A DNA stretch of 64,000 nucleotides from a virus (IMGVR_UViG_3300014208_000024:224001-288000); one strand, 5' to 3'. Numbered from the stretch's first letter, positions 25,944-60,351 are shown. Notes: generated by a model from the letters alone, not told the origin. Numbers and translations: made by a program.

Positions 25944-26346
25944 CAAAGAATTAAATAAACATAACCAATCTGTTTCCGATGAATATAAAAAAAGAAGAGA
26001 AAAAAATAATTTGGAAAAAAAGAAAGCCAAAGAAGTTCAACAAAAGACTTTGTTGGAGCCAAACATTAAAGATGGTTTAATTATTTGGAAAGACAAACAT
26101 AATGACGGAAGTGTTTATGAAGGAAGTTTTGGAAAAGAAAAATGCTTTGAAATCAAACGTGGGATAATTTCTTTTACTCTGAAAACGATACATAAAGAAT
26201 TAAAAACGGATATAAAAAACAATAGCTCTACAGAACTTATTAAACTTCAAGAAAAAGCAAATAAAATTCTTTGGAACAATCCAGAATTTTTATTAAAATT
26301 TAAACCCGTCTCTCAAAAACTTATTCCAAGGTTTTCTAAGATATAA
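25936..26346 (+). CDS. Hypothetical protein
   Basis: 136 aa ORF; convergent 54-nt overlap with the next gene. Confidence 0.55.
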   Translation: MNNKELNKHNQSVSDEYKKRREKNNLEKKKAKEVQQKTLLEPNIKDGLIIWKDKHNDGSVYEGSFGKEKCFEIKRGIISFTLKTIHKELKTDIKNNSSTELIKLQEKANKILWNNPEFLLKFKPVSQKLIPRFSKI

Positions 26347-27066
26347 AGCTCTTTTTTCTCTTTCTGTTAAAGGTTTTTCATTTGCTATTTCTGGAGTTTT
26401 CACTTCTGGTTCCTTTATTTCTGGAGGAGTATTTACAACTGGTTCTTCCATATTTTCTGGCGCTTCAGCTGGAACTTGCCCTGTTGCTTTAACTTTTGAC
26501 AAATCAATTGGTTCTCCCATTTTTTCTCCCCTACCTTCTCTATCATCTCTTTCTATTTCTGCAGTTGTTACATCATATTGGTTAAAAATTGTAGAATATC
26601 TTTTATCTCCTTTTTTATATCCTGGAGGATATTCGTAAAAAAACTTGTCAGTTAACCACATTCCTTTAAAACTTTTAAGATCAAGATCAAATAATCTCCA
26701 TTCGTTATTAGTTTCTTGACTTCTCTTTCCAGTTGATTGAGCGGATCTTTCAGATTGTCCAGCTAAGTGAAAAGCACTCAACTTTAAGGGGACTCCACTT
26801 TTTGTTTTATAAGTTCCCAAAGTAACAGGAAGAATTACTCTAAATTTTGTAACAGGCATATCAGTACTTTTATAAGATATTCCAATTGCCCTACCCTCTC
26901 TAATTGCTTGTTTAATTAAGTTTAGATCGAATCCTTGAACTCTTTGCCAGCTTTTATCGTATGCCTTTGTTAAATCTTCTCTACTAAAATCAATTGACTC
27001 TACAATTGTCTTTAGTCCAGCTATCTGCATTATTCTATTTTTGTATGACTCTGAAATTAACCTCAT
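26293..27066 (-). CDS. WYL-like domain protein with N-terminal leader
   Basis: IGISYK...RVILPVTLG...LSAFHLAGQS...EWRLFDLD follows the WYL/SH3-like pattern; leader MRLISESYKNRIMQIAGLKTIVES; Pro/Glu-rich tail. Confidence 0.6.
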   Translation of the reverse strand: MRLISESYKNRIMQIAGLKTIVESIDFSREDLTKAYDKSWQRVQGFDLNLIKQAIREGRAIGISYKSTDMPVTKFRVILPVTLGTYKTKSGVPLKLSAFHLAGQSERSAQSTGKRSQETNNEWRLFDLDLKSFKGMWLTDKFFYEYPPGYKKGDKRYSTIFNQYDVTTAEIERDDREGRGEKMGEPIDLSKVKATGQVPAEAPENMEEPVVNTPPEIKEPEVKTPEIANEKPLTEREKRALYLRKPWNKFLRDGFKF

Positions 27067-27134
27067 ATGTAATAAATATGAAAATAAACTTAATTTTTAC
27101 ATTTTTTTTTATTATATTTGTAAAAATTAAAATT

Positions 27135-28079
27135 ATGGCTATAAAAGAAATAGATGGTAAAATAATTAAAAGTGATTTACATTCTGGTTTGGGCATAGAT
27201 GATAACAATACCCATATAAGTTTCAGCGAATTTTCTCTTTATAATGAATGTGGTCAAAAACATTTAATTTTTAAATATTTAGCATTAGATGTACAAGAAC
27301 AATCTATTCACTTATTTTTTGGAAATGCAATCCACGAAGCAATAGAAATGGGAGTAAAAAACAATTTAAGCAAAGATCAAAGAGCAAAATATTTTGCAGA
27401 CAAATTTAAAAAAGACATGATGGACAATATGCTTCACGATAAGCAATTTAAAGATGTTGATGATTTTATTGAACAAGGAAAAAATATTTTATTAATTTTA
27501 GACACTGAAGTTATATTAAAAGGATATCAAATAGTCAGCGTAGAGGAACCATTATATGAAGTAATATATAAAAAATTTCGTTTTAAAGGATTCGTTGATA
27601 TGGTAGTTTTTAATCCTTCAACGGGAAAATATCTTATAATTGATTGGAAAACTTCTGGAGAAGAATGGGATGTTGACAAAAAGAAAAAAGATGAAATATT
27701 CTTGTGTCAAATGAGGTTTTATAAATTTTTCTGGGGAAGAAAAAATAAAGTTTCACTCGATAAAATAGATTGTAAATATGTAGTTTTAAACAGACTTAAA
27801 AATAAAAAAAAATCAACTGGTGGGTTTGGGGAAATTCAAATAGTTGATATAAATTCAACCGAAAATGAAGTTTTTGAATCTTTAATAAAACTAGGAGATA
27901 CACTAAAAAACATTCATGTAGAAAAAATATTTCCAAAAGTTAAATTTACTGGAAGCGAAAAGTTTAATTGCATGTTTTGTAAATATAAAGGAGGAATTCA
28001 TCCATTATGCAATTCTAAATATAATCAATATGTAGAGTTGTTGCAAGAAAACGAAAAGAAAATTAAAATAAATATTTAA
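27135..28079 (+). CDS. PD-(D/E)xK exonuclease (RecB/AddB/Cas4-like family)
   Basis: SFSEFSLYNEC, GNAIHEAIE, GFVDMVV, IIDWKTS, QMRFY and C-terminal CMFC; start ATG 27135 after TATATTTG. Confidence 0.85.
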   Translation: MAIKEIDGKIIKSDLHSGLGIDDNNTHISFSEFSLYNECGQKHLIFKYLALDVQEQSIHLFFGNAIHEAIEMGVKNNLSKDQRAKYFADKFKKDMMDNMLHDKQFKDVDDFIEQGKNILLILDTEVILKGYQIVSVEEPLYEVIYKKFRFKGFVDMVVFNPSTGKYLIIDWKTSGEEWDVDKKKKDEIFLCQMRFYKFFWGRKNKVSLDKIDCKYVVLNRLKNKKKSTGGFGEIQIVDINSTENEVFESLIKLGDTLKNIHVEKIFPKVKFTGSEKFNCMFCKYKGGIHPLCNSKYNQYVELLQENEKKIKINI

Positions 28080-28081
28080 AT

Positions 28082-28483: not shown

Positions 28484-28484
28484 A

Positions 28485-28824: not shown

Positions 28825-31800
28825 ATGGCAAAAAAGAAAAAAACCGATACCGATACCAAAGAAGTTAGTGTTGTAAAAATAAGAAAACTAAGGGTTAACT
28901 TTGAGTTGAGGTATGATTATTTAAAAATTCTTACAGAATACATAAAAAGGTTGCCAAAAGAACACAGATCTGTTAGAAAGGATAGTGTTATAGGAATGGA
29001 TGGTAATCCAAAAGATGAATGGGTAAGAATTATTAGCGAAGCAAGAATGGGTGAAATTTTAGCTTTTTTAATTGATAATAAAATAAGATTTGCCTTCGAA
29101 AACATTACCCCAGATGTATTAGAAAGATTGAGAAATGAGTTTGTAGAAAGACAAAGAAAAATTGCAGAAGTATTAAAACTGAAGGCTGAAATGCTAGACG
29201 TTTCAATGGAGGATTACTCATTCATGAAAATCCAACCTTATGAATATCAAAAAAAAGCTGTAAAATTTTTTGAAATTAATAATGGAATTTCTATATTAGG
29301 AGATCAACCTGGAGTTGGGAAAGCTCAAAATTTAGATTCATTATTAGCAACACCTAATGGCTGGATTAGAATGGGGGACGTAAAAATAGGTCAAGAAATT
29401 TTTAGTCAAGATGGTTTGATCTACAATGTCAATGGAGTGTTTCCTAAAGGTATTAATTCAACATACAGAGTTACTTTTAATGATGATTTTTACGTTGACT
29501 GTAACTTAGAACACCTGTGGATAGTAAGAGATGTAAATAGACGAAGAAGAAACACGGGGTGGATAACAAAAACTTTGAAAGAACTTATTGATTCTGGACT
29601 AAGCTATTCTCATTCAAAAAATAGCGTAAGAGCAAAAAGCAATAGAAAACCTGTTTTAAAATGGGAAATTCCTATTACTAATCCAGTAAATTACTCTGAA
29701 AAAAACTTTATTGTTAACCCTTATGTGTTAGGCACATTGATTGGTGATGGGTGTTTGGTTCTTGATTCTATTTGCATTTCAATTTCAGACTCACAACTGC
29801 AGATTAAAAATTTAATAGAAAGTAGACTCCCAGAAGAATTTAAATTAAGAAAAACTAAATTTTACGAAAAATCATGTCCTCAATATTATATAACAAGAAA
29901 TCATTCAATAGGAAGAAATATTATAAAATCCAAGATTGTAGATTTAAAACTAAATGTAAAATCAGGAAATAAATTCATTCCAGATATTTACTTGCGTGGA
30001 AATGTAGATCAGCGAATTGAACTTTTAAGAGGACTTATGGATACAGATGGTAGTGCTGATAAAAACAGAGTTCATTATCACACAAAATCAAAACAACTAG
30101 CCTTTGATGTCGCCGAACTCGTTCAATCTTTAGGAGGGCAAGCATTAATTAAAAAATATGACAGAACTAAAAAAAACAAAGGAATTGAATGGAGAGTTAA
30201 TATCAGAATTAACATATGTCCATTTTACTTAAATGAAAAAATTAAAGAGTGGAATATTATAAAAAGAAATTATTGTTCTAGATATATTAAAAAAGTGGAA
30301 TATGTTTGTGATGAAGAACACCAGTGTATATCTGTAAATTCACCAAATAAAACATATTTAACTAACAATTATATAGTAACTCACAATACAGCTCCCGCAT
30401 TTGCTTATGCAATAAAACACAAGTTGAAAACACTTGTAGTTTGTCCAGCGTCACTAAAATTGATGTGGAGAAAAGAAATTTTAAAATTCTCCAATGAAAA
30501 AGCATTTGTATATAAATTTAAACCAAAAAAGAAAAGTAAAATAATAGCGTATACAAAAAACGAATCTTTATTTCATATTACAAATTATGAATCTATTGAA
30601 TCATACATAAAACTCGAATATCACCACAAATGCAGTGGGAACATGCTTCAATCAACAGGAAAAATGGGGAAATGTACGTGGGAACAAACTGACCTCATAA
30701 AGCAGTATAAAAAATGCCCTATTTGTGAAAACACTGGATCAATTAAAACAAGAATAGTGAGTTTGGTTTCATTTCAGGATTCGTTTAGTCAAGAAATAGA
30801 CCCGTCAAACTACGACTTAATCATTATTGATGAATGCCATAGAATGAAAGAATTAAAGACTACCTGGACAAAAATAATTCACAAAGCATTTTCAAAAATT
30901 CCAAAAAAAATTCTCTTGTCTGGAACTGTAATAAAAAGTCGTCCGTTTGAATTTTTCTCTACTCTAAATTTTATATTACCAGAGGAATGGAAAAATTCTC
31001 ATGAATTTGGAGTTAGATATGGTGCAGGATATCAAGATAATTATGGGTGGAAATATGATGGGGCATCTAATTTAGAAGAGTTGTTCACAAGGGTTTCTTC
31101 TTATTTTTTAAGAAGACTTAAAAAAGATGTTTTAAAAGAGCTTCCAGAAAAAACGTATTTAGAAATTCCAATTGAACTTGACGATAAAGAATATTCTGAA
31201 TATCAAAAACTTTTAAATGAAGTAAAAAAAGAAATAGTTGATGGTAAGGAGATTGAAAAAAAGGATTCTTATTTAGCAAAAATACACAAACTTAAAATGT
31301 TTACTGGAAGAATTAAAGTAAACAAGGTTAAAGAAATGATTCAAGATATAATTGAAAGTGGAGAAAAGGTTGTCGTTGTTTCTGACTATGTAGAACTAGC
31401 AAAAGAAATATTTAAAGAATTTCAAGAAATAGCAGTTTTACATACTGGGGAAATGAATGAAGTTGAAAAACAAGAATCTGTAGATAAGTTTCAAGAGGAT
31501 AAAAATATAAAATTATTTTCTGGAATGATACTGGCTTCTGGAGTCGGTCTTACTTTGACAGCATCTAGTAAACTTTTTAAATTAGGATTTGCATGGTCAC
31601 CAGCAGATGAAGAACAAATATGTGATAGAATTCACAGAGCTGGCGCCACTTCCGATACAATAGAAATTATAACCCCATATTGTCAAGACACTGTTGACGA
31701 AGATATAATGGAACTTTTAAATGATAAATCATTTATAGTGACAAAAACACTTGATAACACAGAATTTAAAAAAGAAAGGAAAATAGTTGATCAAAGTATT

Positions 31801-31836
31801 TTCAAACAACTTGTTGAAAGATTAAAAGATAAATAA
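28825..31836 (+). CDS. SNF2/SWI2-family (HARP-like) helicase containing an intein
   Basis: QPYEYQ, GDQPGVGK/T (Walker A split by the intein), VVCPAS, IIIDECH, LLSGT, FLRRLK, SGVGLTL, QICDRIHRAG; start ATG 28825. Confidence 0.9.
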   Translation: MAKKKKTDTDTKEVSVVKIRKLRVNFELRYDYLKILTEYIKRLPKEHRSVRKDSVIGMDGNPKDEWVRIISEARMGEILAFLIDNKIRFAFENITPDVLERLRNEFVERQRKIAEVLKLKAEMLDVSMEDYSFMKIQPYEYQKKAVKFFEINNGISILGDQPGVGKAQNLDSLLATPNGWIRMGDVKIGQEIFSQDGLIYNVNGVFPKGINSTYRVTFNDDFYVDCNLEHLWIVRDVNRRRRNTGWITKTLKELIDSGLSYSHSKNSVRAKSNRKPVLKWEIPITNPVNYSEKNFIVNPYVLGTLIGDGCLVLDSICISISDSQLQIKNLIESRLPEEFKLRKTKFYEKSCPQYYITRNHSIGRNIIKSKIVDLKLNVKSGNKFIPDIYLRGNVDQRIELLRGLMDTDGSADKNRVHYHTKSKQLAFDVAELVQSLGGQALIKKYDRTKKNKGIEWRVNIRINICPFYLNEKIKEWNIIKRNYCSRYIKKVEYVCDEEHQCISVNSPNKTYLTNNYIVTHNTAPAFAYAIKHKLKTLVVCPASLKLMWRKEILKFSNEKAFVYKFKPKKKSKIIAYTKNESLFHITNYESIESYIKLEYHHKCSGNMLQSTGKMGKCTWEQTDLIKQYKKCPICENTGSIKTRIVSLVSFQDSFSQEIDPSNYDLIIIDECHRMKELKTTWTKIIHKAFSKIPKKILLSGTVIKSRPFEFFSTLNFILPEEWKNSHEFGVRYGAGYQDNYGWKYDGASNLEELFTRVSSYFLRRLKKDVLKELPEKTYLEIPIELDDKEYSEYQKLLNEVKKEIVDGKEIEKKDSYLAKIHKLKMFTGRIKVNKVKEMIQDIIESGEKVVVVSDYVELAKEIFKEFQEIAVLHTGEMNEVEKQESVDKFQEDKNIKLFSGMILASGVGLTLTASSKLFKLGFAWSPADEEQICDRIHRAGATSDTIEIITPYCQDTVDEDIMELLNDKSFIVTKTLDNTEFKKERKIVDQSIFKQLVERLKDK
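29323..30387 (+). mobile_element. Intein (355 aa, Ala1, class-3 WCT signature) with LAGLIDADG endonuclease
   Basis: Begins AQNLDS directly after GVGK and ends IVTHN before Thr(+1); block B HLW, block F QCISV, block G THN; LGTLIGDG and LRGLMDTDG endonuclease motifs. Confidence 0.9.
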
Positions 31837-32742: not shown

Positions 32743-32854
32743 AATATATTTTCATATAAATATATAAAAATTTAAAATACGACGAAGAACAAATTGATGA
32801 TGATATGATTTTTATTTTTTTTTTATATTTATAGGAAACATAAAAATTATTGTC

Positions 32855-33244
32855 ATGAAAATAAAAAAATCAATCGTTGAACAGATAATTAGAGAAGAAG
32901 CTGTAAAAGTTAAAAAACTTATGGTTTTACAAGAAGAGAAAAAAGCAATTCTCAAACAACTCAACGAGTTATACGAAGGTGATGAAATGGATGAAAATAA
33001 ATTTACTGATTTTTTCACAAAAACAAGTGAAGAGTATGCAATGAATTTAATAAAAAAACACCCTTCAAAAGGAAAAACTTATGCATCTTTTGAAGGTGAT
33101 CCAGAAAAACAAGCAAAATATGTAAATGCTGTAAGAAAATGGCCTACTGCAAATCTTGCATGGAGCGAAGAAAAACAAGATTTTGTAAGAACATCAACAC
33201 CAACAGATGCGTCTGGAATATTAGGTCCTATGGGAAAAGAATAG
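32855..33244 (+). CDS. Late protein, putative internal head protein
   Basis: TATTTATA at 32826; leader KSIVEQIIREE...ELYEG; own terminator. Confidence 0.55.
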   Translation: MKIKKSIVEQIIREEAVKVKKLMVLQEEKKAILKQLNELYEGDEMDENKFTDFFTKTSEEYAMNLIKKHPSKGKTYASFEGDPEKQAKYVNAVRKWPTANLAWSEEKQDFVRTSTPTDASGILGPMGKE

Positions 33245-33835: not shown

Positions 33836-34735
33836 ATGATAAAATTTGGAGATATAGGTCCAGAAGTAGCAGAAGTTCAAAAGTTATTATCTTTATTGGG
33901 GTATGACCTAATAGTCGATGCAAATTTTGGAAACAAGACACTAAGATCTATAAAGGCATTTCAAAAAAAATATGGAATTACTCAAGATGGAGTTGTTGGA
34001 GACAAAACATTAACCGCACTAAAAGCTGCACAAAAAAGAACAGCAAAAGAAGATAATAGTCCACTACCTTCAGTAGATTATGAAGGGTTTGATATTGTAA
34101 CAGATTGTCAAATACCAGATCAACAATATGTTAAACAAGTAACATCAAAAAGTCAAATATTTTTACACTTTACAGCTGGTGGAGGCAGTGCAAAAAACAC
34201 TATAAATTATTGGACAAGCGATGCAACTCAAGTTGCAACTGCTTATGTTGTAGATGGAGATTCTGGAAAAGTATATCAAGCTTTTCATCCAGATTATTGG
34301 GGTTGGCACCTTGGAGTAAAAGGAACAAATGGAAAACTAGATAAAGCTTCAATAGGAATAGAAATATGTTCCTATGGGCCTTTGGTTAAAAAGGGAAGCG
34401 ATTTCTTTGCGTGGCCAAACAATTATTCAACAAAAGTAAATGAAAGTAATGTTTATACACTAGAGAATGATTTTAGAGGATACATATATTACTATAAATA
34501 TACTGACAAGCAAATAGAAAACATAGAAAAACTTCTTGAATTTCTTATAAAAAAATACAAAATAAAAGTACAAGGAAATTTTGATTTAAACTGGTTAGAA
34601 TATAACCAAGAATTAATTAATAAATGCTTGCCTGGTATATGGTCTCATTCTAATGTTAGAAAAGATAAATTTGATACTTATCCAGATAAAAGATTATTTG
34701 AAGTTCTTAATAGAATATATAAAAAATTTAATTAA
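33836..34735 (+). CDS. Endolysin: peptidoglycan-binding domain + N-acetylmuramoyl-L-alanine amidase (Amidase_2)
   Basis: PG_binding_1 (VQKLL...DANFGNKT..SIKAFQKK.G...DGVVGDKT); Zn ligands IFLHFTAG, WSHSNV, KFD; TATTTATA at 33814. Confidence 0.88.
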   Translation: MIKFGDIGPEVAEVQKLLSLLGYDLIVDANFGNKTLRSIKAFQKKYGITQDGVVGDKTLTALKAAQKRTAKEDNSPLPSVDYEGFDIVTDCQIPDQQYVKQVTSKSQIFLHFTAGGGSAKNTINYWTSDATQVATAYVVDGDSGKVYQAFHPDYWGWHLGVKGTNGKLDKASIGIEICSYGPLVKKGSDFFAWPNNYSTKVNESNVYTLENDFRGYIYYYKYTDKQIENIEKLLEFLIKKYKIKVQGNFDLNWLEYNQELINKCLPGIWSHSNVRKDKFDTYPDKRLFEVLNRIYKKFN

Positions 34736-34736
34736 C

Positions 34737-35030
34737 ATGACAAAAGAAGACGAAGTTAAAGTTAGGGAAATTATAAAATCGCATATTGAAAAAGAATTTA
34801 AGAAAGAAAGAGAAGAAACTGAAAAGAACATTCTTAAAGCAATTAAAAATAGCGAAAAATCTCAGAAGAGCGAATTTTTGTCTTCTTTAAAAAAAGAAAT
34901 AGATTCTTTAGATAAAAAAATATTTACAAAAGAACAAATAAAAGATTTAATGATTAAAGCTTTTGTTAGACAAAATAGGTTTAATTGGGAAAAATCAAAG
35001 TTTTTAACATCTTATTTTAATGAATTATAA
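34737..35030 (+). CDS. Hypothetical helical protein
   Basis: Start re-assigned to ATG 34737 just after the endolysin stop. Confidence 0.5.
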   Translation: MTKEDEVKVREIIKSHIEKEFKKEREETEKNILKAIKNSEKSQKSEFLSSLKKEIDSLDKKIFTKEQIKDLMIKAFVRQNRFNWEKSKFLTSYFNEL

Positions 35031-35032
35031 TT

Positions 35033-35701
35033 ATGGACGAAGTTACAAGAAAAAAAGTATTAGAAATAATAAAAAAATCATTAGACGAAGTTGTCTATGA
35101 TGAAATGAGAAGAGTGCCTGAAACAATTAAAAAAAGGCAAGAGGAAATTAAAAAAACAAAATCTCAAAGAGCTCAAGATGCTCATGATGCTTTATTTGGA
35201 AAAGATGAAGAAATGAATTACAAGTTAAAACTTCATGAAGGACAGGAAAATCCAAAAATAACCACCAACGAACTTGAACAATTCGACAAAGAATTTAAAA
35301 GTCGTTTTCCAGGTATATCTTTTGAAAAACAACCTGGAAATGCACAAATTGTAGGTTTTCCAATAAAAAACGGACAAAAAGATGCTATAACTTCTGGAAA
35401 AATAACAACAGGAGAAAGTGAAATTGGTTTCACCATGTCGTTAATAAACGGATTTAAAATTAACAGCATTATTGAAGGTGGTAAAATTAAGCCATTTGAA
35501 ATTAAAAAAGAAACAAAAGATGTTTTTGGAAAAATATTAAATTTATACGAAGAAATATTTAAAAAAAGATTTAACGATATTATAAATCCAACCGAACAAT
35601 CAGGCGAAGAAGAACTAGAAATGGGAGAAAACCCACCATCAGCTCCTCCTACAGCTACACCACAACCCACTGCATCAGTCAATCCAACACCTAGCGTGTA
35701 A
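35033..35701 (+). CDS. Late protein, putative internal head protein
   Basis: Charged leader ending KLKLHEG; Pro-rich tail. Confidence 0.5.
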   Translation: MDEVTRKKVLEIIKKSLDEVVYDEMRRVPETIKKRQEEIKKTKSQRAQDAHDALFGKDEEMNYKLKLHEGQENPKITTNELEQFDKEFKSRFPGISFEKQPGNAQIVGFPIKNGQKDAITSGKITTGESEIGFTMSLINGFKINSIIEGGKIKPFEIKKETKDVFGKILNLYEEIFKKRFNDIINPTEQSGEEELEMGENPPSAPPTATPQPTASVNPTPSV

Positions 35702-35755
35702 CATTAATTAAATAACTATTTAATTTTTCCTTTTTAAGGATTATATTTTATTTGT

Positions 35756-36046
35756 ATGCATACAATTCAACAAATAATAGAAAATCAAAAAAAATTTAAA
35801 GAGGAAATATTTTATTTTTTTTCCAAAGAACATGCTGAAGCAAAGAAAATTCTTAGTGAAATTGAATCGGATGATGAATACATTGTTAAAGAAAAAAACA
35901 AACTTAAAAATAGATTTAAAAAAATTAAACAAAGAAACTATATTGAGCGTTTATTTTTTTTAAATTCTTGTAGAAACACTATTTTTTATGTATGGTGGGA
36001 TGAAGAAGAAAAAGAAGCTAAAATTTTTAAATATGACAAAAGATAG
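35756..36046 (+). CDS. Hypothetical protein
   Basis: 96 aa ORF. Confidence 0.5.
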   Translation: MHTIQQIIENQKKFKEEIFYFFSKEHAEAKKILSEIESDDEYIVKEKNKLKNRFKKIKQRNYIERLFFLNSCRNTIFYVWWDEEEKEAKIFKYDKR

Positions 36047-36362
36047 AAAAAACACCCAAATTTATTTAATAGATATTAAATATAAACATTCGATAAATTA
36101 TTTTGAAGAATGGTATGGAGAAAGCGTAAGTTATTCTTTTATTGAACAAGAAAGTTATATAGATTTAAAGAAAATGATTTCTGAAATGATTAATGAAAAA
36201 ATAAAATTTAGAAAATTTGAAAGAAATAATATGATTTTAACACTTAAAGTTGAAATGTTGGATGAAGAATTGGAAAAATTGAGATATTTAATAAAAGAGA
36301 AGAAACTTAAATTTCTTCATGATTATGAAATTAGTGATATTAGAAATTATAAAAAAGAATAA
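36033..36362 (+). CDS. Hypothetical protein
   Basis: Start re-assigned to ATG 36033. Confidence 0.5.
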   Translation: MTKDRKNTQIYLIDIKYKHSINYFEEWYGESVSYSFIEQESYIDLKKMISEMINEKIKFRKFERNNMILTLKVEMLDEELEKLRYLIKEKKLKFLHDYEISDIRNYKKE

Positions 36363-36365
36363 ATC

Positions 36366-37382
36366 ATGGCACAAGAACTAACTTTAGCTCAATTAGAAAG
36401 AATCAAGCAACAAAGAATCCAAAAGTTTAAAGCTATTGGATTACCTGAAACCGCAGGACAAATAGCGGATATTCCAATTGAAAACATACCAGAACAAAGA
36501 GTTTACGAAGCTCCACAACAAACAATTCCACAACCACAACATGCACAACAAATAGAAATGAGCATGGAAATGCCAAACAAAGCAAACATTGAAGAAGCCA
36601 TACAGCAACAATTGGCGGAAGAAAGAGCACAAAGGAATGCTTCTATGTATACTGCACCAAGAGATAAATTTAGTGCACTAGAAGCAATTAGAAGAGGTGC
36701 AAAAAAACAAGAATTTAAACAATTTATTAAAGCAGAATATAGTGGAGTAAATGGAAATCAAATTCCAGAAACAAAAGTTGGAAAAAGAAAATCTAGACCA
36801 GGACAACAACAAGAAAAATCTTCAAATGCAATAGAGCCGCAATCTTTTTCAGCTAAAGGAAATGCGGGTGAGTTGGGAATGTTAGAGAGTTTATTTACAG
36901 ATAAATCTCCTGGAATTAATGTTCGATCATCTGGAAATGGAGTTCCTCAAGGAAATTTAATTGAAACAGACGAAAACTATTCAAATGTAGGGGCCCATTT
37001 CGATCCAGTTGCTCATTTAAAAGCAAAAGCTGCAGAAAAGGGAGTTAATATTGATTTTAACAAGAATAAAAAGTTAATAACAGAAAATAATACTCCACAA
37101 GTTTTTCAAACTGGCAATTCTGAACAAATGTCTCAAATGATGCTTATGATGGAGGCTATGATGAAAACCCAACAAAAAAACAATTATGATCTTCCATCGT
37201 TAAAAGAAATGATAACAGAAATTGCTAAAAAAACAGCAGAAGATACCATAAGAAAGGTTCTAAAAGAATACTTGGAAAACCAAAAAAAGAAAAACGTTTT
37301 TGAAGTAGTAAATAAAGAAAAAAATGTTGTAAAAATCGGAGACAAATACTTTCAATTAAAACAAGTAGTTGTTAAATCTTAA
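36366..37382 (+). CDS. Gln-rich, largely disordered hypothetical protein
   Basis: 338 aa, Q/E/P-rich; contains KKLITEN. Confidence 0.55.
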   Translation: MAQELTLAQLERIKQQRIQKFKAIGLPETAGQIADIPIENIPEQRVYEAPQQTIPQPQHAQQIEMSMEMPNKANIEEAIQQQLAEERAQRNASMYTAPRDKFSALEAIRRGAKKQEFKQFIKAEYSGVNGNQIPETKVGKRKSRPGQQQEKSSNAIEPQSFSAKGNAGELGMLESLFTDKSPGINVRSSGNGVPQGNLIETDENYSNVGAHFDPVAHLKAKAAEKGVNIDFNKNKKLITENNTPQVFQTGNSEQMSQMMLMMEAMMKTQQKNNYDLPSLKEMITEIAKKTAEDTIRKVLKEYLENQKKKNVFEVVNKEKNVVKIGDKYFQLKQVVVKS

Positions 37383-37888
37383 TATAAATCATCGATAGTA
37401 AAATTATTTGTAAAAATAACTTTTAATGTAGGGGAAGGTCTTGACTCTCCAGAACACCATTCTTTTGAAAATTGTTCTGGAGTTTTTTTTAATTCAACTA
37501 TACTCCTTTGACTTAGAGCTCCATAAATTTGATTTGATCTAGTTAATCTTATTATGTTATTTTGATCATGTATAGAATTTACAAAAATTACTAATTTTTT
37601 CTTTATTGCACTATCTATATGTTGTGTTAAGTGGCATGCTTTACATAATGTAATACCTTTTGAAAGTTCTGGATTAGCTTTATTTACTTCGAATAAGTGA
37701 AAAAATAAACAATCGTTTTTTCTTGATTGTGGAGGTTCATGTTCGCATGCAGCACATTTTCCTCTGTCTAAAATAAACGCCTCGTTTTTAAGCCACGCAA
37801 ATAATTCTTGCCCATAAATTTTAATAAACTGTTTTTCTGGAAAAGTATTGCAAATAAGCAATTTATATGGTCTTGGTATATTTTTCAT
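37379..37888 (-). CDS. HNH-like Zn-binding endonuclease-fold protein
   Basis: DRGKCAAC...FFH...ITLCKACHLTQH; TATATTTG only 4 nt upstream of the ATG. Confidence 0.5.
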   Translation of the reverse strand: MKNIPRPYKLLICNTFPEKQFIKIYGQELFAWLKNEAFILDRGKCAACEHEPPQSRKNDCLFFHLFEVNKANPELSKGITLCKACHLTQHIDSAIKKKLVIFVNSIHDQNNIIRLTRSNQIYGALSQRSIVELKKTPEQFSKEWCSGESRPSPTLKVIFTNNFTIDDLY

Positions 37889-38019
37889 GTAACAAATATA
37901 GAAATTTTTTCTCTAATTTCAAAATCATATTAAATATTTTTATTATTTTTTTTAAAAATTTTTTTTATGTTCTTTGATTTTTATGTTTTATTGTCTATTT
38001 ATATAAAAAATTAATTTAT

Positions 38020-38760: not shown

Positions 38761-38776
38761 CAATATTTTATATTTT

Positions 38777-38810
38777 AAAAGAGTCGAGATTAATCTTGAC
38801 TCTTTTTTTT
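38777..38810 (+). terminator. Intrinsic terminator
   Basis: GAGTCGAGAT-TA-ATCTTGACTC stem plus T8. Confidence 0.85.
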
Positions 38811-38839
38811 ATTTTTACTATATTTGAAAAAAAATACAT

Positions 38840-46655: not shown

Positions 46656-46661
46656 CACAAT

Positions 46662-46922
46662 ATGGTTATAAAAAGTTTTAAAATAAAAAGGAGAGACTTT
46701 GAAAAAAAACCCATTACTATATTTCAGCATAAATTAAGGGTTTTAATGAAGTGTTATACAATTAAAGATCTTATTCTTGATGAAATAAATTTTACCATAA
46801 CATTCAAAAAGAATCATAAAATAAATGGGTTAAAAATGCAAGACCCAAAACAATACACTGGAAAGTATGAAGTTTTAAATTCAGAAGTTCCAGGTGAAAT
46901 TATTCTTAAATTAATGATATAA
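46662..46922 (+). CDS. Hypothetical protein
   Basis: 86 aa ORF. Confidence 0.5.
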   Translation: MVIKSFKIKRRDFEKKPITIFQHKLRVLMKCYTIKDLILDEINFTITFKKNHKINGLKMQDPKQYTGKYEVLNSEVPGEIILKLMI

Positions 46923-48562: not shown

Positions 48563-49123
48563 ATGGACACAAATGAAAAAAGCAAAGGCTACGCCGAGAA
48601 ATTAGTTAAATTGTTGGCTAAAAAAATGGATTTAGATGTTTCTAAATATGATATGAAACAACTTGTTCAAGGAATGTTGGTTGAATTGGAACATGGTTCA
48701 AATAATGAAAAAACAAATATCACTAATGACGATCCAGAACAGACTCTTAAGATAGTATTAGCACATTTAGATGAAATTCCAGATTATTATACAAGGCTAA
48801 AAAAAATGGAAGATGAGGCAAGTTCTGTAAAAACAGACAAACAAAACGAAGACTCTGATGAATTAGAAGAAAAAGAAGAAAAAGAAATAACAGTGGAAAA
48901 CTCCTCAAAAAGATTTAAAGAACTTTGTGGAATAGTTGAAAATTCAGAAAAAAAACAACTAAAAAATCCACTGTATCAAGAAAAAAACAAAAAGGTTCTT
49001 TTGAAAGAAGAAATAGATCCAAAAAAATTTGACATTGTTAAATTTAGTAACGATGGGCTTGGAGATAAAGAGTCGGAAGATGAAAAAGATTTATATAAAA
49101 TGATAAAAAAAGTAAAAAAGTAA
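48563..49123 (+). CDS. DUF5661-like protein
   Basis: GMLVELEHG...KIVLAHLDEIPDYYTRLKKME; C-terminal ENSSKRFKELCGIVEN and LLKEE segments; TATTTATA at 48540. Confidence 0.7.
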   Translation: MDTNEKSKGYAEKLVKLLAKKMDLDVSKYDMKQLVQGMLVELEHGSNNEKTNITNDDPEQTLKIVLAHLDEIPDYYTRLKKMEDEASSVKTDKQNEDSDELEEKEEKEITVENSSKRFKELCGIVENSEKKQLKNPLYQEKNKKVLLKEEIDPKKFDIVKFSNDGLGDKESEDEKDLYKMIKKVKK

Positions 49124-50368: not shown

Positions 50369-50632
50369 TTATAATTGTTTTCCAAGAGTTTTTTTAACGC
50401 TATTTAATGACGATATAAGCTCATCTATTTTTTTAATAGTGCCCTCTTTATCGGGATTTTCTTTTGTAGATTCAAATTCATTCTTTAAATCAACGAGTTT
50501 AACATATGCGTCCCTTTTAATTTCTTCAAACCCCTTTTTTTGTTTTAAGGTGTCAATGTCTTTTAACGAATCAGAGTTTAAAAGCATTTCTCTAATCTGT
50601 TTTCTTAGTTTTTTTATTTCGTCCAATTCCAT
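50369..50632 (-). CDS. Small late protein
   Basis: TATTTATA (-) at 50651; leader IKKLRKQIREMLL. Confidence 0.5.
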   Translation of the reverse strand: MELDEIKKLRKQIREMLLNSDSLKDIDTLKQKKGFEEIKRDAYVKLVDLKNEFESTKENPDKEGTIKKIDELISSLNSVKKTLGKQL

Positions 50633-50745
50633 ATAAATTGTTTTCTTTTATATAAATATCATTAAAAACTATTTTTTTTAAAAATTGTTTTTTTTATATT
50701 TTACAAAAGACTAAAAAATAAATAATATTTATTAGAATAAAACAA

Positions 50746-54907: not shown

Positions 54908-56653
54908 TTACAAATCATATATTTCATCAAACCCAAAATTCATAGCAAAATCTTTAATTAATATCCCTGCTTTTGCATTTGCCTCATCTTCTATCCATCC
55001 TCCAATGGTTTGTACTATTTCTCCATCTCCAAAACTTTTAATTTCTCTTTGTCTGTTATGCGTTAATTCGTGAGCTATACTTCTTAATATATCAACAATT
55101 GCTCTTCCAGTACATCTTATATGGTTTGAGTTTTCATCGGGAACATAAGAGGCTGTAGTGGCTATATATTCATCTCTCCCTTTGTGAAGATATATTTCAA
55201 CTGGCTCCTCTAACTCTAATCTATTACATACAAAATTAATAAAGTTCCTTATAATTTCAACTTTTTCTGGAGTCATTCCTTCAATTCCTTTTTCTACTCC
55301 CAGTGTGTTTTCTTTTTTTCCAATGCTAAAGTTATATTTTTCTTTTGGGGGATATGAATAAGAAAAATTATCGCTTAAGAATTTAATCGACTTTTTCAAC
55401 TTCTTTGAATATTTTTCTCCCGTTCCTGGTTTTAAATATGCTATAGTCATATGAGGGTGATAATCTGGATGATCGTTTTTATATTCAAAATTATCTCTCA
55501 AACTTTTGTTTAAATCATGTAAATCATCAGAATCAATATCAAACTTTAAAACATCGAAATCTTTGTTTTTAAACAAAGAAATTTCACTTAATTCAATTTC
55601 AATTTTTTTCTTTCCACTTAATGTTTTTCTTACAATTTTTTCAACATCACTGGGTTTAGTTTTTTCATGTATAAAACCAAATAGTGCAGTTGTATGAGGT
55701 TTGTCTTCTATTCCATAACCTGGAACATCATAAATGTCTTCTTTTTTTATTAAGTCGGTTATTTGTTTCCAATTCTTTATTGGGAAATCTAACATTAAAC
55801 ACCCATATTCTTTTTTAAATCCCCCTTTACCTTCTTTGAGTATAGATTTTTTTGGTTTATGTGATTCAAATAAATCTTTTTCCATTAAAGACAAAGAGGT
55901 GTCAAAAGATTTTGTTTTTATATCTGAAAGTTTATCTAAATAACCAGACTTTCTGATTATTTTAAAAACAAGATTTTCTATTGAATATTCTCCACCTTTT
56001 TCAAGGCCAGAATTTCTTAGTTTTTTTATTTTATCTTTTATTTTATCAGCCTTTTCAATAATCTTTTCATCGTTTTCTAAGTTTTGAAGACTGTCTATAT
56101 CATTCATAATAGTAGCAGCTTTTTCTTTTATAGAAACTCCATCTACTTCTTTTGTATATTTCTCTGGCTTTTGAATCCATGAGTCTTTAAGAACACTATA
56201 AACGCCCTTATTTGAAAACAAATTTTCTTCATCTTTAGCAAACAATTCAACTTCAAATCCTTTTATTTTTATATCATGTTCATCATTCCATAAAGATTTC
56301 TTTGCAGCTATATATTCTTGTAGAAACTCTTCTGGTTCCTCTAAAGAAGGTAAGTCTAAAATTAAATGAATGTCTATATCACTCATTAATGTCCAATTAT
56401 AATTAGCTAAACTTCCAGTGAAAATTACATCTTTTAAACGAACTCCTAATTTTAAATATTCCTTAAATGCTTTTGCTATTTTTAACATAGCAACCCTTAC
56501 TTCTTTTTTTAATTTATAATTTTCCCAAATTTGACTATTTAACTCATCTTTAGGCTCACTCACTTGAACATCTATATCGTTTGGAGAAATATCTTCGTTA
56601 AAAAAATTAAAACTTCTTTTTATAATATAAGGATTCCCTTTATTTGTTTCCAT
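54908..56653 (-). CDS. Three-domain protein: Pol-beta-type nucleotidyltransferase + 2H phosphoesterase (Acb1/LigT-like) + HExxH zincin-like domain
   Basis: FTGSLANYNW..SDIDIH and VELF (NTase); KPHTTALF and DYHPHMTIAY (two HxT motifs); SIAHELTH...EDEANAKAG; TATTTATA (-) at 56670. Confidence 0.85.
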   Translation of the reverse strand: METNKGNPYIIKRSFNFFNEDISPNDIDVQVSEPKDELNSQIWENYKLKKEVRVAMLKIAKAFKEYLKLGVRLKDVIFTGSLANYNWTLMSDIDIHLILDLPSLEEPEEFLQEYIAAKKSLWNDEHDIKIKGFEVELFAKDEENLFSNKGVYSVLKDSWIQKPEKYTKEVDGVSIKEKAATIMNDIDSLQNLENDEKIIEKADKIKDKIKKLRNSGLEKGGEYSIENLVFKIIRKSGYLDKLSDIKTKSFDTSLSLMEKDLFESHKPKKSILKEGKGGFKKEYGCLMLDFPIKNWKQITDLIKKEDIYDVPGYGIEDKPHTTALFGFIHEKTKPSDVEKIVRKTLSGKKKIEIELSEISLFKNKDFDVLKFDIDSDDLHDLNKSLRDNFEYKNDHPDYHPHMTIAYLKPGTGEKYSKKLKKSIKFLSDNFSYSYPPKEKYNFSIGKKENTLGVEKGIEGMTPEKVEIIRNFINFVCNRLELEEPVEIYLHKGRDEYIATTASYVPDENSNHIRCTGRAIVDILRSIAHELTHNRQREIKSFGDGEIVQTIGGWIEDEANAKAGILIKDFAMNFGFDEIYDL

Positions 56654-57426: not shown

Positions 57427-57864
57427 CTATCTTGACTCATCCTTTGGAATCTCATAATTGTATAAGTTTTTCCACCTATTAGATTGATCTTCATCTACTA
57501 TTTTTTTATCTTCAGCTATAATATCAAATAGTTCTGGGCTAATTAATGGATTTCTTAAATCAATTTTTTTGTTAATTTTTTTCATTTCCTCAGCTAAAAT
57601 TTTAATTTTATCAGGAGATAAAATTCCTTCTTTTATTACTGCATCTTCATCAATAGAAACAGATTTTGGAATTTTAGGTTCTTTAGGCTCTTTTGGTTCT
57701 TTTGGTAATTTGTTTACGTTTTTTTTCGTAAAGCTAGGCTTTGTTAATTTTGGTGGCTCAGGTTGTTTAAGGATTTTTTTTTCTTCCTCTTGTACCTCTA
57801 CACCTTCAAAAATATATTTTTGAGCTTTCTTTATTACAAATTCTCTAAATTCTTGTTGGTCCAT
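57427..57864 (-). CDS. Late protein with PKE/PKI repeats, putative internal head protein
   Basis: TATTTATA (-) at 57887; KYIFEG, PKEPKEPKEPKIPK, VIKEG; ends RWKNLYNY. Confidence 0.5.
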   Translation of the reverse strand: MDQQEFREFVIKKAQKYIFEGVEVQEEEKKILKQPEPPKLTKPSFTKKNVNKLPKEPKEPKEPKIPKSVSIDEDAVIKEGILSPDKIKILAEEMKKINKKIDLRNPLISPELFDIIAEDKKIVDEDQSNRWKNLYNYEIPKDESR

Positions 57865-58480: not shown

Positions 58481-58856
58481 CTCTTTTGTTTTCTTCAAAT
58501 ATAAGAGAAATAATCTGTTTTAAAAATCCTTGTTTTTTTACTAACTTTTTATATTCTACCGCAAGTGAATTTGCTATCGTCAAAGCATTTGGACTATATA
58601 TGGTTTTTTGCTCAGACTCTTTTCCATTAACTACACTAACAAAATAAGCAGCATCCACTCCCATAGGCCACCTAATCCAGAAATGAATTCCTATTGGAAG
58701 TGTAAAGTGAAAATATGTTACCCCTTCCTTTTTGTCACGTTCAATTGTAAAATCTTTTAATGACATTCCAGCTTTTTTAAAAACGCTTTTGTAAACAGCT
58801 TTAATTCTTTCGTCTGGAATGTTTTCGTTTAACAAATTTTCTTCTTCTTTTTTCAT
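58452..58856 (-). CDS. Hypothetical protein
   Basis: 134 aa, co-oriented directly downstream of the CCA enzyme. Confidence 0.5.
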   Translation of the reverse strand: MKKEEENLLNENIPDERIKAVYKSVFKKAGMSLKDFTIERDKKEGVTYFHFTLPIGIHFWIRWPMGVDAAYFVSVVNGKESEQKTIYSPNALTIANSLAVEYKKLVKKQGFLKQIISLIFEENKRVNQNPLIKS

Positions 58857-58859
58857 AAT

Positions 58860-60254
58860 TTAAGATTTGCTAATAAATATTATTTTCTTTATTTCTTCTG
58901 AATTTCCAGAATCTAAAATTCTTTTAACCATATCTGGATTTTTGTAAAATTCCTTTTCTAATCTTGCAATAGCCATCCCCAATTCTCTTTCTTGGTATCC
59001 AAGTGATTTAAGCAACTCGGAAGGTTGTATAAATTCATTTGCAAGTCTTAAAAAATTGCTTATTTTAATTCTGTCTATGTGACTTATGTTTGCAAAACTA
59101 TATATCATATCTTCTGTCATTGAATAAATTTTTTCGTTTATTTTAGGTTTTGCACTTTTTGCCTTTTGAAGATATAGTTTTTTTATAGAAGAAACAGTGT
59201 TTTCGTTTAAACTTAACAAAGAAACAAGAAAAATAATACAACTTATTTCATCAGTACTATATTTTCTAAAATTTAATTCTTTTTCTATGTTTTTTACATT
59301 ATTGTCTTTTAATAAGTTAGAAACTAAGATTATTGGATTTTTCTCTTCAATAAAATAATTAGCACTAAAAGTTAAATTACCAAATATATATTTAAAAAAA
59401 TCAAAATCTTTTAACAATTCAAGAAAGTGTTTTACGCTTTTTGAACTTTTAATTCCTTTATAAAACTCATCCCTTATTCTTTCCAAAGAAACCATTTTTC
59501 CAGTAGGGTCGGTCAAAGAAGTTCCCCCTTCCCTAATAGCTTCAGCAACATTGTCGGGAATTTTAGATCCCATTTTTGCAGCAAATCTTATAGCTCTAAT
59601 TTTTCTCAATGGATCTTCATCAAATCTATCGGTTGGATTTCCGACGGTGTTAATAACATTGTTTTTAACATCATTTACTCCACCAACAAAATCTAATACA
59701 TCTCCTTCAAAACCATTTTCTGCAATTCCAGTTATTTCATAAAACAATGCGTTGATCGTTAAATCTCTTCTTTTTGAATCTTCCTCTGGATTATCTACGT
59801 ACTCAACACTATCTGGTTTTCTTCCTCCTCCAACATCTTTTCTAAATGTTGCCAATTCATATCTGTTTCCAGATTTTGTTACTATAAATTGAATTGCAAA
59901 TGATTCTCCAATGTGCAAAATATTGGAAACGAAAGGTGCCTTTTCGAATAATGTTCTTATTTGATCTGGAAAAGCATTGGTGGCCAAATCAAAATCTTTT
60001 GGCACATCAATAGTTGTATCCATTGGGTTCTTTTGTAATTTTATTTCGTTTTTTACAGCGTCTCTTACGGCACCACCAACAATATACATTTTAAAATTAT
60101 TCGCAAGTAATATTTCTCTTATTTTTAAAATATCTTCTTTGTCACTTGACGCCACTGGCATATTAAGAGGAAACCTTTTTTCTCCATTATCTTCCTTTAA
60201 AAAATTCTCAAGTAATATCTTTCTTATTTTTTTTCTGGCAATTTTTTCTTCCAT
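58860..60254 (-). CDS. cca: Class II tRNA nucleotidyltransferase (CCA-adding enzyme), no HD domain, with N-terminal leader
   Basis: YIVGGAVRD, DFDLAT, ELATFRKD, RRDLTINA, templating EDPLR, ERIRDE; leader MEEKIARKKIRKILLENFLKED; TATTTATA (-) at 60268. Confidence 0.88.
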   Translation of the reverse strand: MEEKIARKKIRKILLENFLKEDNGEKRFPLNMPVASSDKEDILKIREILLANNFKMYIVGGAVRDAVKNEIKLQKNPMDTTIDVPKDFDLATNAFPDQIRTLFEKAPFVSNILHIGESFAIQFIVTKSGNRYELATFRKDVGGGRKPDSVEYVDNPEEDSKRRDLTINALFYEITGIAENGFEGDVLDFVGGVNDVKNNVINTVGNPTDRFDEDPLRKIRAIRFAAKMGSKIPDNVAEAIREGGTSLTDPTGKMVSLERIRDEFYKGIKSSKSVKHFLELLKDFDFFKYIFGNLTFSANYFIEEKNPIILVSNLLKDNNVKNIEKELNFRKYSTDEISCIIFLVSLLSLNENTVSSIKKLYLQKAKSAKPKINEKIYSMTEDMIYSFANISHIDRIKISNFLRLANEFIQPSELLKSLGYQERELGMAIARLEKEFYKNPDMVKRILDSGNSEEIKKIIFISKS

Positions 60255-60351
60255 AAACAACATTTTTTATAAATATGAAAACTTTTTAGTAATTTTTACG
60301 TTATTATTCAAATAAAGTTATTATATTTGTATAAATAATTTTAAAAATTAA

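Follow-up and report, generated by a model that had tools for sequence, protein, structure and literature searches.

Late proteins of an uncultured T4-superfamily jumbo phage of 372,283 bp (the 372-kb phage) carry short, portable tags of two kinds, and about 25 unrelated proteins so tagged are probably loaded into the head before protease trimming. As judged from their sequence, the tags are rather likely to be head-targeting propeptides of the T4 CTS kind. The window that was analysed is a 64,000-nucleotide part of this genome. A gp21-type prohead protease, which the first-pass annotation of the window had predicted for the full genome, is encoded at genome positions 166865-167605 (PF03420, Peptidase_S77, E 2.9e-30, 102.9 bits against a cut-off of 27) and is 36% identical to T4 gp21. 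It adjoins the scaffold and major capsid genes, and the order protease-scaffold-MCP makes up a T4-like module. A clade-invariant MLNE/V aligns with the T4 gp23 cleavage site LTE/A.

Tag 1 and the late promoter

The sequence M-x3-[LI]-R-K-h-I-[RK]-E-x-[ILV]-x2-[LI]-[FL]-E defines tag 1, a basic amphipathic helix of 18 residues whose hydrophobic positions recur in a heptad-like way; the next residue is N, S, G or A. It is present on 21 N-termini genome-wide, mostly of unrelated proteins. The leader HMM recovered 20 N-termini at E < 1e-5, with the next best at 0.075, whereas only 1 of 2395 shuffled N-termini and 1 of 2060 internal 40-mers scored; one more N-terminal member and one C-terminal copy were found beyond these 20. 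The tag is modular and restricted to protein termini. Among the cargo parts no BLAST similarity was found except in three small paralogue groups, and three tagged paralogues have a Tpt1/KptA-like ADP-ribosyltransferase fold.

Conservation is strongest at Ile9, which is invariant, and at positions 6 and 10, where 29 of 30 copies have R or K. Of the 28 aligned copies, 16 have Glu at position 18 and 4 have Asp, with [LI]-[FLY] before it and N, S, G or A after it; in some members the first hydrophobic-x-Glu lies 1-5 residues past the expected place. These departures count against a propeptide reading; in T4, Asp blocks processing (PMC9026906). A helix of this amphipathic kind might, moreover, work in assemblies other than the head.

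The profile built from this genome found 11 N-termini in a 222-kb relative (against 1 of 1240 internal segments) and 4 in a 518-kb relative. Just two of the seven best tag-1 proteins of the 222-kb relative have homologues in the 372-kb phage; as in T4, cargo turns over between related phages and the tag is retained. An orthologous AAA_33 kinase carries tag 1 at the C-terminus in the 372-kb phage and at the N-terminus in the 518-kb phage. In the latter, tag 1 is also internal, at the fusion junctions of the homologues of P0002 and the CCA-type enzyme, two window proteins listed below. No P0002 homologue was found among cultured phage records.

The genes singled out by the first-pass annotation had been connected through a TATTTAT(A) motif. 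Judged by where it lies, TATTTAT(A) marks a genuine class of morphogenetic promoters: the window holds 38 copies of TATTTATA against 14.2 ± 4.1 expected, and genome-wide the motif lies in sense orientation 10-25 nt 5' of start codons and upstream of the homologues of T4 TerL, sheath, portal and prohead protease. TATTTAT precedes 17 of the 21 tag-1 members directly, compared with about 100 of 459 other genes (p ~3e-8), and the remaining four members lie just 3' of late-class genes. In this comparison at motif level, tag-1 genes have TATTTAT in common with the TerL, sheath, portal and protease genes. As had been stated, 11 of the 12 listed genes are under TATTTAT(A) or behind such a gene, 35033 being more loosely linked. 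Of the proposed address made up of promoter plus tag, the tag is a probable one; the promoter alone is no address, because endolysin and endonuclease-like genes also use TATTTAT. The genes at 332-18651 had no match in the family search, and their description as tail genes is therefore an inference of the earlier annotation.

The shared N-termini might also be read as an expression cassette, in which the promoter and an A/T-rich 5' coding stretch would be retained for efficient initiation on late mRNAs that are short or leaderless, with recombination spreading them. Indeed, only 4-25 nt separate TATTTAT from the start codon, A abounds in the leader codons, and the host type, inferred from TAnnTTTG promoters, probably lacks Shine-Dalgarno-led initiation. 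However, synonymous codons vary while the residues are kept (Arg as AGA, CGT or AGG; Leu as TTA, CTT or CTA), and positions 6, 9 and 10 are constant or nearly so. The tag is also kept on the P0002 homologue of a relative with 46.6% GC, and its C-terminal copy and the copies within fused ORFs stand where initiation plays no part. We regard this as the least probable of the explanations considered, with only a slight chance of being correct.

Tag 2 and the scaffold tail

Tag 2, [ML]-x-L-S-E-x-Y-x2-R-L-x-E-L-A-G-I-x2-E, resembles the conserved C-terminal tail of the scaffold protein, which is kept in all clade members as LYES-x-E-x-RR-x-[KR]-x-LAGI-x-K. There are eight N-terminal copies in the 222-kb relative and seven in the 518-kb relative, and in the 372-kb phage the genome ORF 37308-37688 matches the tag-2 profile (E 6.7e-5). 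A profile made only from the N-terminal tags of the 222-kb relative found the scaffold C-tail of the 518-kb phage (E 3.6e-4), and a profile of N-terminal tags only found the tail of a head-module protein in the 372-kb phage (E 1.5e-4). The match of the tag-2 profile to the 372-kb phage's own scaffold tail was borderline (E 0.07), and the reverse search with a scaffold-tail profile recovered no N-terminal tags significantly. On three proteins, tags 1 and 2 stand in tandem.

We propose that the two tags recruit unrelated late-made proteins into the assembling prohead, by binding to its core or shell. Tag 2, as a putative copy of the phage's own scaffold C-terminal tail, would dock where that tail docks. 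[quoted passage not shown] The freed cargo would then exit with the DNA at the next infection.

Instead of loading the capsid and being removed by the protease, the tags could be docking or oligomerisation helices for another late structure or partner, such as the tail, baseplate, membrane, a chaperone or a common enzyme inhibitor. The generic look of tag 1, a basic amphipathic helix with heptad-like hydrophobic residues, would agree with this, as would the missing similarity to the T4 CTS and the copies that have no Glu at the expected place. A binding helix would also tolerate N-terminal, internal and C-terminal positions without cleavage. Nevertheless, the match of tag 2 to the conserved scaffold C-tail and the tag tandems indicate the head, a gp21-type site would be expected to show just such an invariant Glu beside a variable P2, and for a membrane anchor the helix is too charged. 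We consider docking elsewhere unlikely and continue with head-targeting propeptides as the preferred reading.

Tagged and untagged genes in the window

According to the profile search, the 18-residue leader is present on only two of the twelve genes that the first-pass annotation had listed. The genes and promoter motifs of the window that bear on the proposal are:

42185-42748, + strand: P0002, predicted tag-1 cargo protein of 187 aa, third gene of the conserved late operon 41219-41712-42185; leader HMM E 1.5e-13
58860-60263, - strand: CCA-adding/poly(A)-polymerase-family nucleotidyltransferase, 467 aa; PF01743 E 5.6e-26, domain from residue 59
60268-60275, - strand: TATTTATA late-class promoter motif, 4 nt 5' of the CCA-type start codon
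41197-41203, + strand: TATTTAT late-class promoter motif of operon 41219-41712-42185
41219-41701, + strand: protein of 160 aa whose residues 1-11 form a short N-terminal tag that ends FLLE/S; leader HMM not significant (E 2.7)
41712-42185, + strand: 157-aa middle gene of the late operon; EIRE/N at residue 58, not conserved
32855-33244, + strand: 129-aa acidic coiled-coil protein with half-leader SIVEQIIREE at residues 6-15; HMM E 1.2
32826-32833: TATTTATA promoter of the 32855-33244 gene
26293-27066, - strand: 257-aa protein with divergent tag 2 at residues 1-23 (26998-27066), ending TIVE/S; tag-2 profile E 7
27072-27078: TATTTAT promoter of the 26293-27066 gene
50369-50632, - strand: 87-aa late protein with borderline tag 1, absent from the earlier list; best sub-threshold match, E 0.075
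50651-50658: TATTTATA of the 50369-50632 gene
48563-49123, + strand: DUF5661 protein (PF18905 E 2e-16); quoted site at residue 146, no leader
38020-38760, + strand: 246-aa late protein; L-x-E near residue 25 roughly conserved, no leader by profile
54908-56653, - strand: NTase, 2H phosphoesterase and HExxH fusion of 581 aa with late promoter and no tag; quoted sites in the interdomain linker, residues 260-275
44234-46030, + strand: 598-aa late protein without family match; quoted site at residue 379, no leader
35033-35701, + strand: 222-aa protein without its own promoter; quoted site at residue 66, no leader
57427-57864, - strand: 145-aa late protein with YIFE/G at residue 17 in an amphipathic N-terminus; HMM E 0.8, below threshold

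The leader of P0002 comprises residues 1-18 (42185-42238) and ends in LFE/S. All 24 homologues, the most distant at 30% identity, keep its Glu18, at a mean column identity of 50%. The predicted structure has a helix at residues 2-20, a linker and a helical domain (pLDDT 75.6), and the model found no match in the PDB. In G001, the 518-kb relative, one open frame of about 869 aa runs from tag 2 at its start to the P0002 homologue at its end; a match to the orthologue of the middle gene 41712 was also obtained there, as an ORF call of 152 aa. In the CCA-type enzyme, tag 1 occupies residues 1-24 (60192-60263; leader HMM E 2.4e-6) and similarity to solved CCA/PAP enzymes begins only at residue 43-48, so the leader is an addition relative to these homologues, as had been suspected. 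Its orthologues retain the leader, N-terminally in relative G002 and internally, behind a cREC domain, in G001.

Besides these two, which are firm candidates for cargo, three further listed genes are plausible ones on sequence grounds. The N-terminus of 41219-41701 is plausibly a short form of tag 1, with [FW]-L-x-E-[SN] retained in the orthologues of G001, G002 and the 46.6% GC relative. The half-leader of 32855-33244 is plausibly a divergent tag 1: [QN]-[IL]-I-x-E-E occurs in all four orthologues, including that of the 46.6% GC relative, as exact QII[KR]EE in three and as NLINEE in G001. The first 23 residues of 26293-27066 resemble the N-terminus of the otherwise unrelated ORF 37308-37688 (pairwise E 1.9e-4). 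The other seven listed genes found no support as members. The NTase-2H-HExxH fusion, named as tagged cargo, is without a tag, no WYL protein was found, and 57427-57864 has no orthologue in the relatives examined. An internal tag-2-like stretch does occur in the DUF5661 protein at residues 112-130 (48896-48952; HMM E 0.003 against 0.11 for the best shuffled sequence).

The idea of a shared terminal tag on scattered late genes was right in that the tag ends in hydrophobic-x-Glu; what discriminates is the specific 18-residue helix or the scaffold-tail mimic. All peptide strings that had been quoted are present. However, [ILVF]-x-E occurs at 2.33 per 100 aa in the proteome, therefore some are found in any protein, and the bare motif is too common to discriminate. 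The quoted sites of five genes (35033, 41712, 44234, 48563 and 54908-56653) lie at residues 58-379 and are no leaders. Overall, the late-class N-termini are enriched as claimed: [IL]-x-E occurs in the first 20 residues of 47 of 115 TATTTAT-class proteins against 83 of 363 others, with 62 sites in that class against 42 ± 5.5 in within-sequence shuffles, and neither the host-promoter class nor the other class showed N-terminal enrichment. It did not hold as a property of a generic motif, because most of it comes from the 18-residue leader family, whose removal leaves a weak remainder (p 0.003-0.18).

That all twelve genes encode protease-matured virion cargo, marked by any hydrophobic-x-Glu plus a late promoter, is hence very improbable in our view. 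It could draw on the [IL]-x-E excess that persists in the first 30 residues after removal of the leader family (62 against 45.5 ± 5.5) and on the N-terminal hydrophobic-x-Glu kept in the orthologue alignments of 38020, 41712 and 44234. Against it stand the frequency of the motif (2.3 per 100 aa), the five sites deep inside proteins, the seven genes that are noise against both tag profiles, and the endolysin and endonuclease-like genes under the same promoter.

Known systems and significance

In T4, the CTS is a propeptide of 10-20 aa; cleavage by gp21 follows L/I-x-E, and both ends of Alt undergo processing (PMC9026906, PMC5694885). The tags described here share with it a short N-terminal propeptide-like segment on unrelated late proteins, the hydrophobic-x-Glu end, a small residue next and a gp21-family protease. 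As with T4 Alt, an ADP-ribosyltransferase is among the predicted cargo, and Alt with gp21 is a precedent for C-terminal processing. Unlike the 10-aa CTS MKTYQEFIAE (NC_000866), tag 1 has 18 residues with an invariant Ile and flanking basic residues, occurs also internally and C-terminally, and is accompanied by a second tag type; T4 has a handful of cargo genes, whereas about 21 are scattered here over 372 kb. The tag-1 profile gave no match with T4 IPII, IPIII, gp21-24, 67 or 68, so the likeness would be one of function, and tag 1 is not a detectable CTS homologue.

In phiKZ, 201phi2-1 and SPN3US, propeptides of head and ejection proteins are cut by gp21-related S80 proteases (PMC5694885, PMC9026906). 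In these giant phages, too, many proteins enter the head and lose N-terminal propeptides to a Glu-specific protease, which often has several redundant sites to cut. Their propeptides are mostly longer than 100 aa, lack a consensus and are cut at S/A-x-E, whereas a short consensus tag is reused across the predicted cargo here. The protease of the 372-kb phage is a clear Pfam S77 member, unlike the S80 type.

The scaffold of staphylococcal phage 80alpha and SaPI1 CpmB have a common C-terminal capsid-binding tail, and the P22 scaffold has a coat-binding C-terminal helix-turn-helix. As with CpmB, a non-scaffold protein with a copy of the scaffold's terminal docking peptide would enter the procapsid, here as read from sequence alone. 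Unlike in 80alpha/CpmB, the scaffold-tail motif is mostly N-terminal, on many unrelated proteins, and followed by a putative protease site; the CpmB type of use redirects capsid size, and here the use is putatively in cargo. Encapsulin cargo-loading peptides and the encapsulation peptides of bacterial microcompartments also address unrelated enzymes to a shell interior by a short terminal amphipathic helix plus linker. The helix-and-linker addressing is similar, but the shells and lineages are different and no maturation protease removes the peptides.

More broadly, and with somewhat less than even confidence, a clade of 0.2-0.5-Mb groundwater T4-type phages may use a position-independent two-tag code of basic amphipathic leader and scaffold-tail mimic. 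This code would double as a cleavage junction in fused polyproteins and load some 25-30 rapidly exchanged proteins per phage into the capsid for injection, including CCA/PAP RNA-repair-type, ADP-ribosylating and kinase-like enzymes.

First-strike proteins for host takeover and against defence belong to the set that T4 injects. Should the tags indeed address the capsid, sequence alone would reveal which proteins an uncultured giant T4-type phage injects, and the predicted cargo would be candidate early effectors: the tRNA 3'-end nucleotidyltransferase, three ADP-ribosyltransferases of the Tpt1-like kind, two kinases, one minimal and one of P-loop type, and many ORFans. Like the T4 CTS, which already has this use, the tags would lend themselves to loading foreign proteins into large capsids. 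The link with the scaffold tail suggests a route to new cargo, in which the scaffold docking peptide may be copied onto any gene.

Phage identity and the late promoter class

The window (bases 224001-288000) comes from a single virus record of 372,283 bp with 28.7% G+C; bare coordinates refer to the window and "genome" coordinates to the whole record. In GenBank phage records, neither the window nor P0002, a 187-aa protein encoded by the third gene (42185-42748, +) of operon 41219-41712-42185, was matched. The gp21-type prohead protease that the first-pass annotation expected in the full genome was found at genome 166865-167605 (PF03420, E 2.9e-30; 36% identity with T4 gp21), within a protease-scaffold-major-capsid module, and homologues of the T4 portal, sheath and large terminase are encoded as well. 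This protease, the head module and these homologues place the phage in the T4 superfamily, as a jumbo member.

The window contains 38 occurrences of the motif TATTTATA, where 14 would be expected. Genome-wide it is sense-oriented and lies 10-25 nt 5' of about 75-115 of the 478 ORFs, and its reverse complement gave no comparable upstream peak. Since the TerL, sheath, portal and protease homologues follow it directly, and the capsid gene lies downstream in the protease operon, it is a morphogenetic promoter class, presumably late. A TAnnTTTG class of the Bacteroidota host type stands 5' of other genes. The late-class promoter also drives non-virion genes and is thus not confined to virion proteins; it precedes the endolysin (33836-34735; PG_binding_1 and Amidase_2) and a zinc-finger, endonuclease-like gene.

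TATTTAT can lie as close as 3-5 nt to the start codon, e.g., at 60268-60275 (-), 27072-27078 (-) and 25754-25761 (+), and also in L109, the locus of a relative with 46.6% GC. This implies that late mRNAs may be very short or leaderless. The late motif is retained as CTATTTATG in that syntenic relative. Between window 33836-47698 and L109, gene order from the endolysin to a PcfJ-like gene is kept at 28-60% protein identity, which marks the block as core to a wider group because the order persists in a much more distant phage contig.

The tag-1 leader

The first-pass annotation had listed twelve genes as head-packaged, protease-matured cargo on the basis of a hydrophobic-x-Glu peptide and a TATTTAT(A) motif. 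The quoted peptides are all present, but in five genes they are located at residues 58-379, and the proteome averages 2.33 [ILVF]-x-E motifs per 100 aa. The enrichment test was nevertheless positive for late-class N-termini. Within the first 20 residues, 47 of 115 late-class proteins had [IL]-x-E versus 83 of 363 others, and late-class N-termini contained 62 such sites against 42 +/- 5.5 expected from within-sequence shuffles; the host-promoter and other classes showed no excess in the same test. A listing of late-class N-termini traced the enrichment to a common leader, here called tag 1, which is an 18-residue basic amphipathic segment closing with hydrophobic-x-Glu. Without this leader family, the excess was weak.

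An iterated leader profile recovered 20 N-termini at E < 1e-5, with the next best at 0.075. At E < 0.01, the controls yielded a single match among 2395 shuffled N-termini and another among 2060 internal 40-mers, the latter being a second tag-1 copy within an ORF with a GTG start at genome 292762. On the strength of shuffle and internal-segment controls, here and in the relatives, chance was rejected. The GTG-start ORF (genome 292762-293409, +), 4.8 kb past the window end, has TATTTAT upstream and carries tag 1 twice, at a spacing of about 55 residues; the ORF upstream of it ends in KMKKLAGV, which is tag-2-like (see below). Six-frame searching brought in two further copies, one N-terminal, at genome 36836, and one C-terminal, on an AAA_33 P-loop kinase (genome 308384-309085).

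The consensus of 30 copies is M-x3-[LIV]-[RK]-K-h-I-[RK]-[EK]-x-[ILV]-x2-[LIM]-[FLY]-[ED]-[NSGA]. Ile9 never varies, 29 of the 30 copies are basic at positions 6 and 10, and conservation ends at position 19. Outside the leader, the proteins are mutually unrelated except for three small paralogue groups. Leader codons vary synonymously beneath the conserved residues, and structure models show the tag as a helix of its own, with a low-confidence linker after it. An own TATTTAT precedes 17 of the 21 members versus about 100 of 459 other genes (Fisher p ~3e-8), and the remaining four lie just 3' of late-class genes. A search of 1.8 billion representative proteins, a library for which the 32-position profile is too short, gave four matches at E <= 0.001, three with the lengths of proteins of this genome (231, 229 and 320 aa).

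To follow the tag in other phages, relatives were located via the capsid protein, and two of them were scanned in full with the profile derived only from this genome. The 222-kb relative, with a major capsid protein (MCP) 63% identical, had 11 N-termini at E < 0.01 versus 1 of 1240 internal segments. TATTTAT was present at 21 of its 32 matches at E < 1, compared with 72 of 278 genes as the baseline. Of its seven best matches, only two have homologues here, the P0002 and CCA-adding enzyme orthologues. The 518-kb relative gave four N-terminal matches. Its AAA_33 kinase orthologue carries tag 1 at the N-terminus, whereas the copy here is C-terminal. An 869-aa ORF of this relative has the P0002 homologue as its C-terminal part, where the leader is internal and just follows an S-L-F-E|A site. 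In the CCA orthologue (L155:2-271 (-) and L154:19592-19801 (-), two loci of the 518-kb phage) the leader lies between an extra cREC domain and the catalytic domain. This N-terminal cREC_REC domain (PF20274, E 7e-19) is typical of RNA-repair systems. Tag 1 was not found in relatives with an MCP only ~44% identical.

Tag 2 and the scaffold tail

A second terminal motif, h-x2-h-A-G-[ILV], is called tag 2. In the form [ML]-x-L-S-E-x-Y-x2-R-[LM]-x-E-L-A-G-I-x2-E it occupies eight N-termini in the 222-kb and seven in the 518-kb relative. The motif is also the C-terminal tail of the scaffold protein in all clade members, L-Y-E-S-x-E-x-R-R-x-[KR]-x-L-A-G-I-x-K; the tail differs in more distant relatives. 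The other genomes were scanned with a profile derived solely from seven N-terminal tags of the 222-kb phage.

Table. Matches of the tag-2 profile (protein; position; E value).
Genome 35444-36253 (-); residues 39-54 of the ORF as called; 6.4e-5
Genome 37308-37688; N-terminus; 6.7e-5
Head-module protein, genome 176610-177374; C-terminal tail; 1.5e-4
518-kb phage scaffold protein; C-terminal tail; 3.6e-4
Window 48563-49123; internal, residues 112-130; 0.003
Scaffold protein of this genome; C-terminal tail; 0.07
Best shuffled control; 0.11

For genome 35444-36253, the true start is probably the internal Met at residue 39 of the longest ORF, where the match begins. By coordinate arithmetic, this predicted ATG probably overlaps the stop of the tag-1 kinase-like gene 36138-36836 (-), and it would follow from this start that a tag-2 and a tag-1 gene probably share one late transcription unit.

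The converse search with a scaffold-C-tail profile did not significantly recover the N-terminal tag-2 copies here (tag-2 N-terminus E 0.22, best shuffled 0.019), its best non-scaffold match in this genome being at E 0.0035. The profile link thus runs in one direction only, from N-terminal tags to scaffold tail. The protein at 26293-27066 was not recognised by the tag-2 profile (E 7). Both tags occur in tandem at the kinase C-terminus here and at one N-terminus in the 222-kb phage, and the 869-aa fusion protein of the 518-kb phage has tag 2 at its start and tag 1 inside.

Scaffold C-tails are the usual coat-binding elements (P22, 80alpha). Because tag 2 matches such a tail, it links the tags with head assembly by a route separate from the protease argument. 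Complex prediction of P0002 leader residues 1-45 with scaffold and protease scored 0.00, at a partner pLDDT of only 39, which weighs on neither side of the binding question.

Cleavage site, cargo and comparison with T4

In T4, gp21 cleaves after L/I-x-E, the propeptides that form the capsid-targeting sequence (CTS) are 10-20 aa long, both termini of Alt are processed, and Asp at P1 stops processing but not targeting (PMC9026906; PMC5694885). The T4 gp23 site LTE|A aligned to MLNE|V, which is invariant throughout this clade. Across 24 P0002-family sequences, which reach down to 30% identity and have a mean column identity of 50%, the closing Glu of the leader is also invariant; P3 is always hydrophobic, P2 is variable, and P1' is S, A, T or N.

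Of the twelve genes originally listed as tagged cargo, two are strong and three plausible, and seven found no support.

Table. Standing of the listed genes as tagged cargo.
42185; strong; tag-1 profile
58860-60263; strong; tag-1 profile
41219; plausible; [FW]-L-x-E-[SN] retained in orthologues
32855; plausible; [QN]-[IL]-I-x-E-E in 4/4 orthologues, exact QII[KR]EE in three
26293; plausible; divergent tag 2, through a pairwise match (E 1.9e-4) to another tag-2 protein
35033, 38020, 41712, 44234, 48563, 54908-56653, 57427; unsupported; noise against both tag profiles

The gene at 58860-60263 encodes an enzyme of the CCA-adding/poly(A)-polymerase family. Since its homology to solved structures starts at residue 43-48, the first ~40 residues are an addition, as had been proposed. 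A WYL protein was also named among the cargo, and the proteins scanned gave no WYL match.

Tagged paralogues at genome 58173, 133510 and 351341 look like Tpt1/KptA-type ADP-ribosyltransferases, judging from a weak Pfam match, language-model look-alikes and the top 19 Foldseek matches (best E 2e-5, on a modest model with pLDDT 60.6). The genome 36836 protein looks like a minimal protein kinase (SteC, E 0.013). P0002, which is helical and conserved, had no Foldseek match in the PDB, and the rest of the cargo are ORFans. Pfam and PHROGs gave no match for most cargo, nor for the presumed tail genes.

Other genes of the window are as follows.
332-18651: large late genes taken as tail genes in the first-pass annotation, without Pfam or PHROG function
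6050-9643: one of these late genes, with nine repeats of an unknown PHROG domain
28825-31836 (+): SNF2-family helicase, 1003 aa, its SNF2 domain split at residues 396-458 by a LAGLIDADG_3 domain, probably an intein or inserted homing endonuclease
54908-56653 (-): three-module late protein that joins a nucleotidyltransferase (phrog_36119) to a 2H phosphoesterase bearing two H-x-T motifs (anti-CBASS Acb1 similarity below threshold, 25.3 bits, cut-off 27) and, at the C-terminus, an HExxH module; two separate adjacent ORFs match the NTase and HExxH modules in the 222-kb relative

Our literature search found no paper on such tags beyond T4, P1 and the phiKZ group. The likeness to the T4 CTS lies in the probable mode of working. 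Unlike the CTS, MKTYQEFIAE, which marks a handful of genes, the tag here is a different, longer sequence without a profile match to it, marks about 21 genes, can sit anywhere in a protein and is accompanied by a scaffold-tail mimic. Working like a CTS, it would direct the tagged proteins to packaging, cleavage and ejection, and they may have a counter-defence role.
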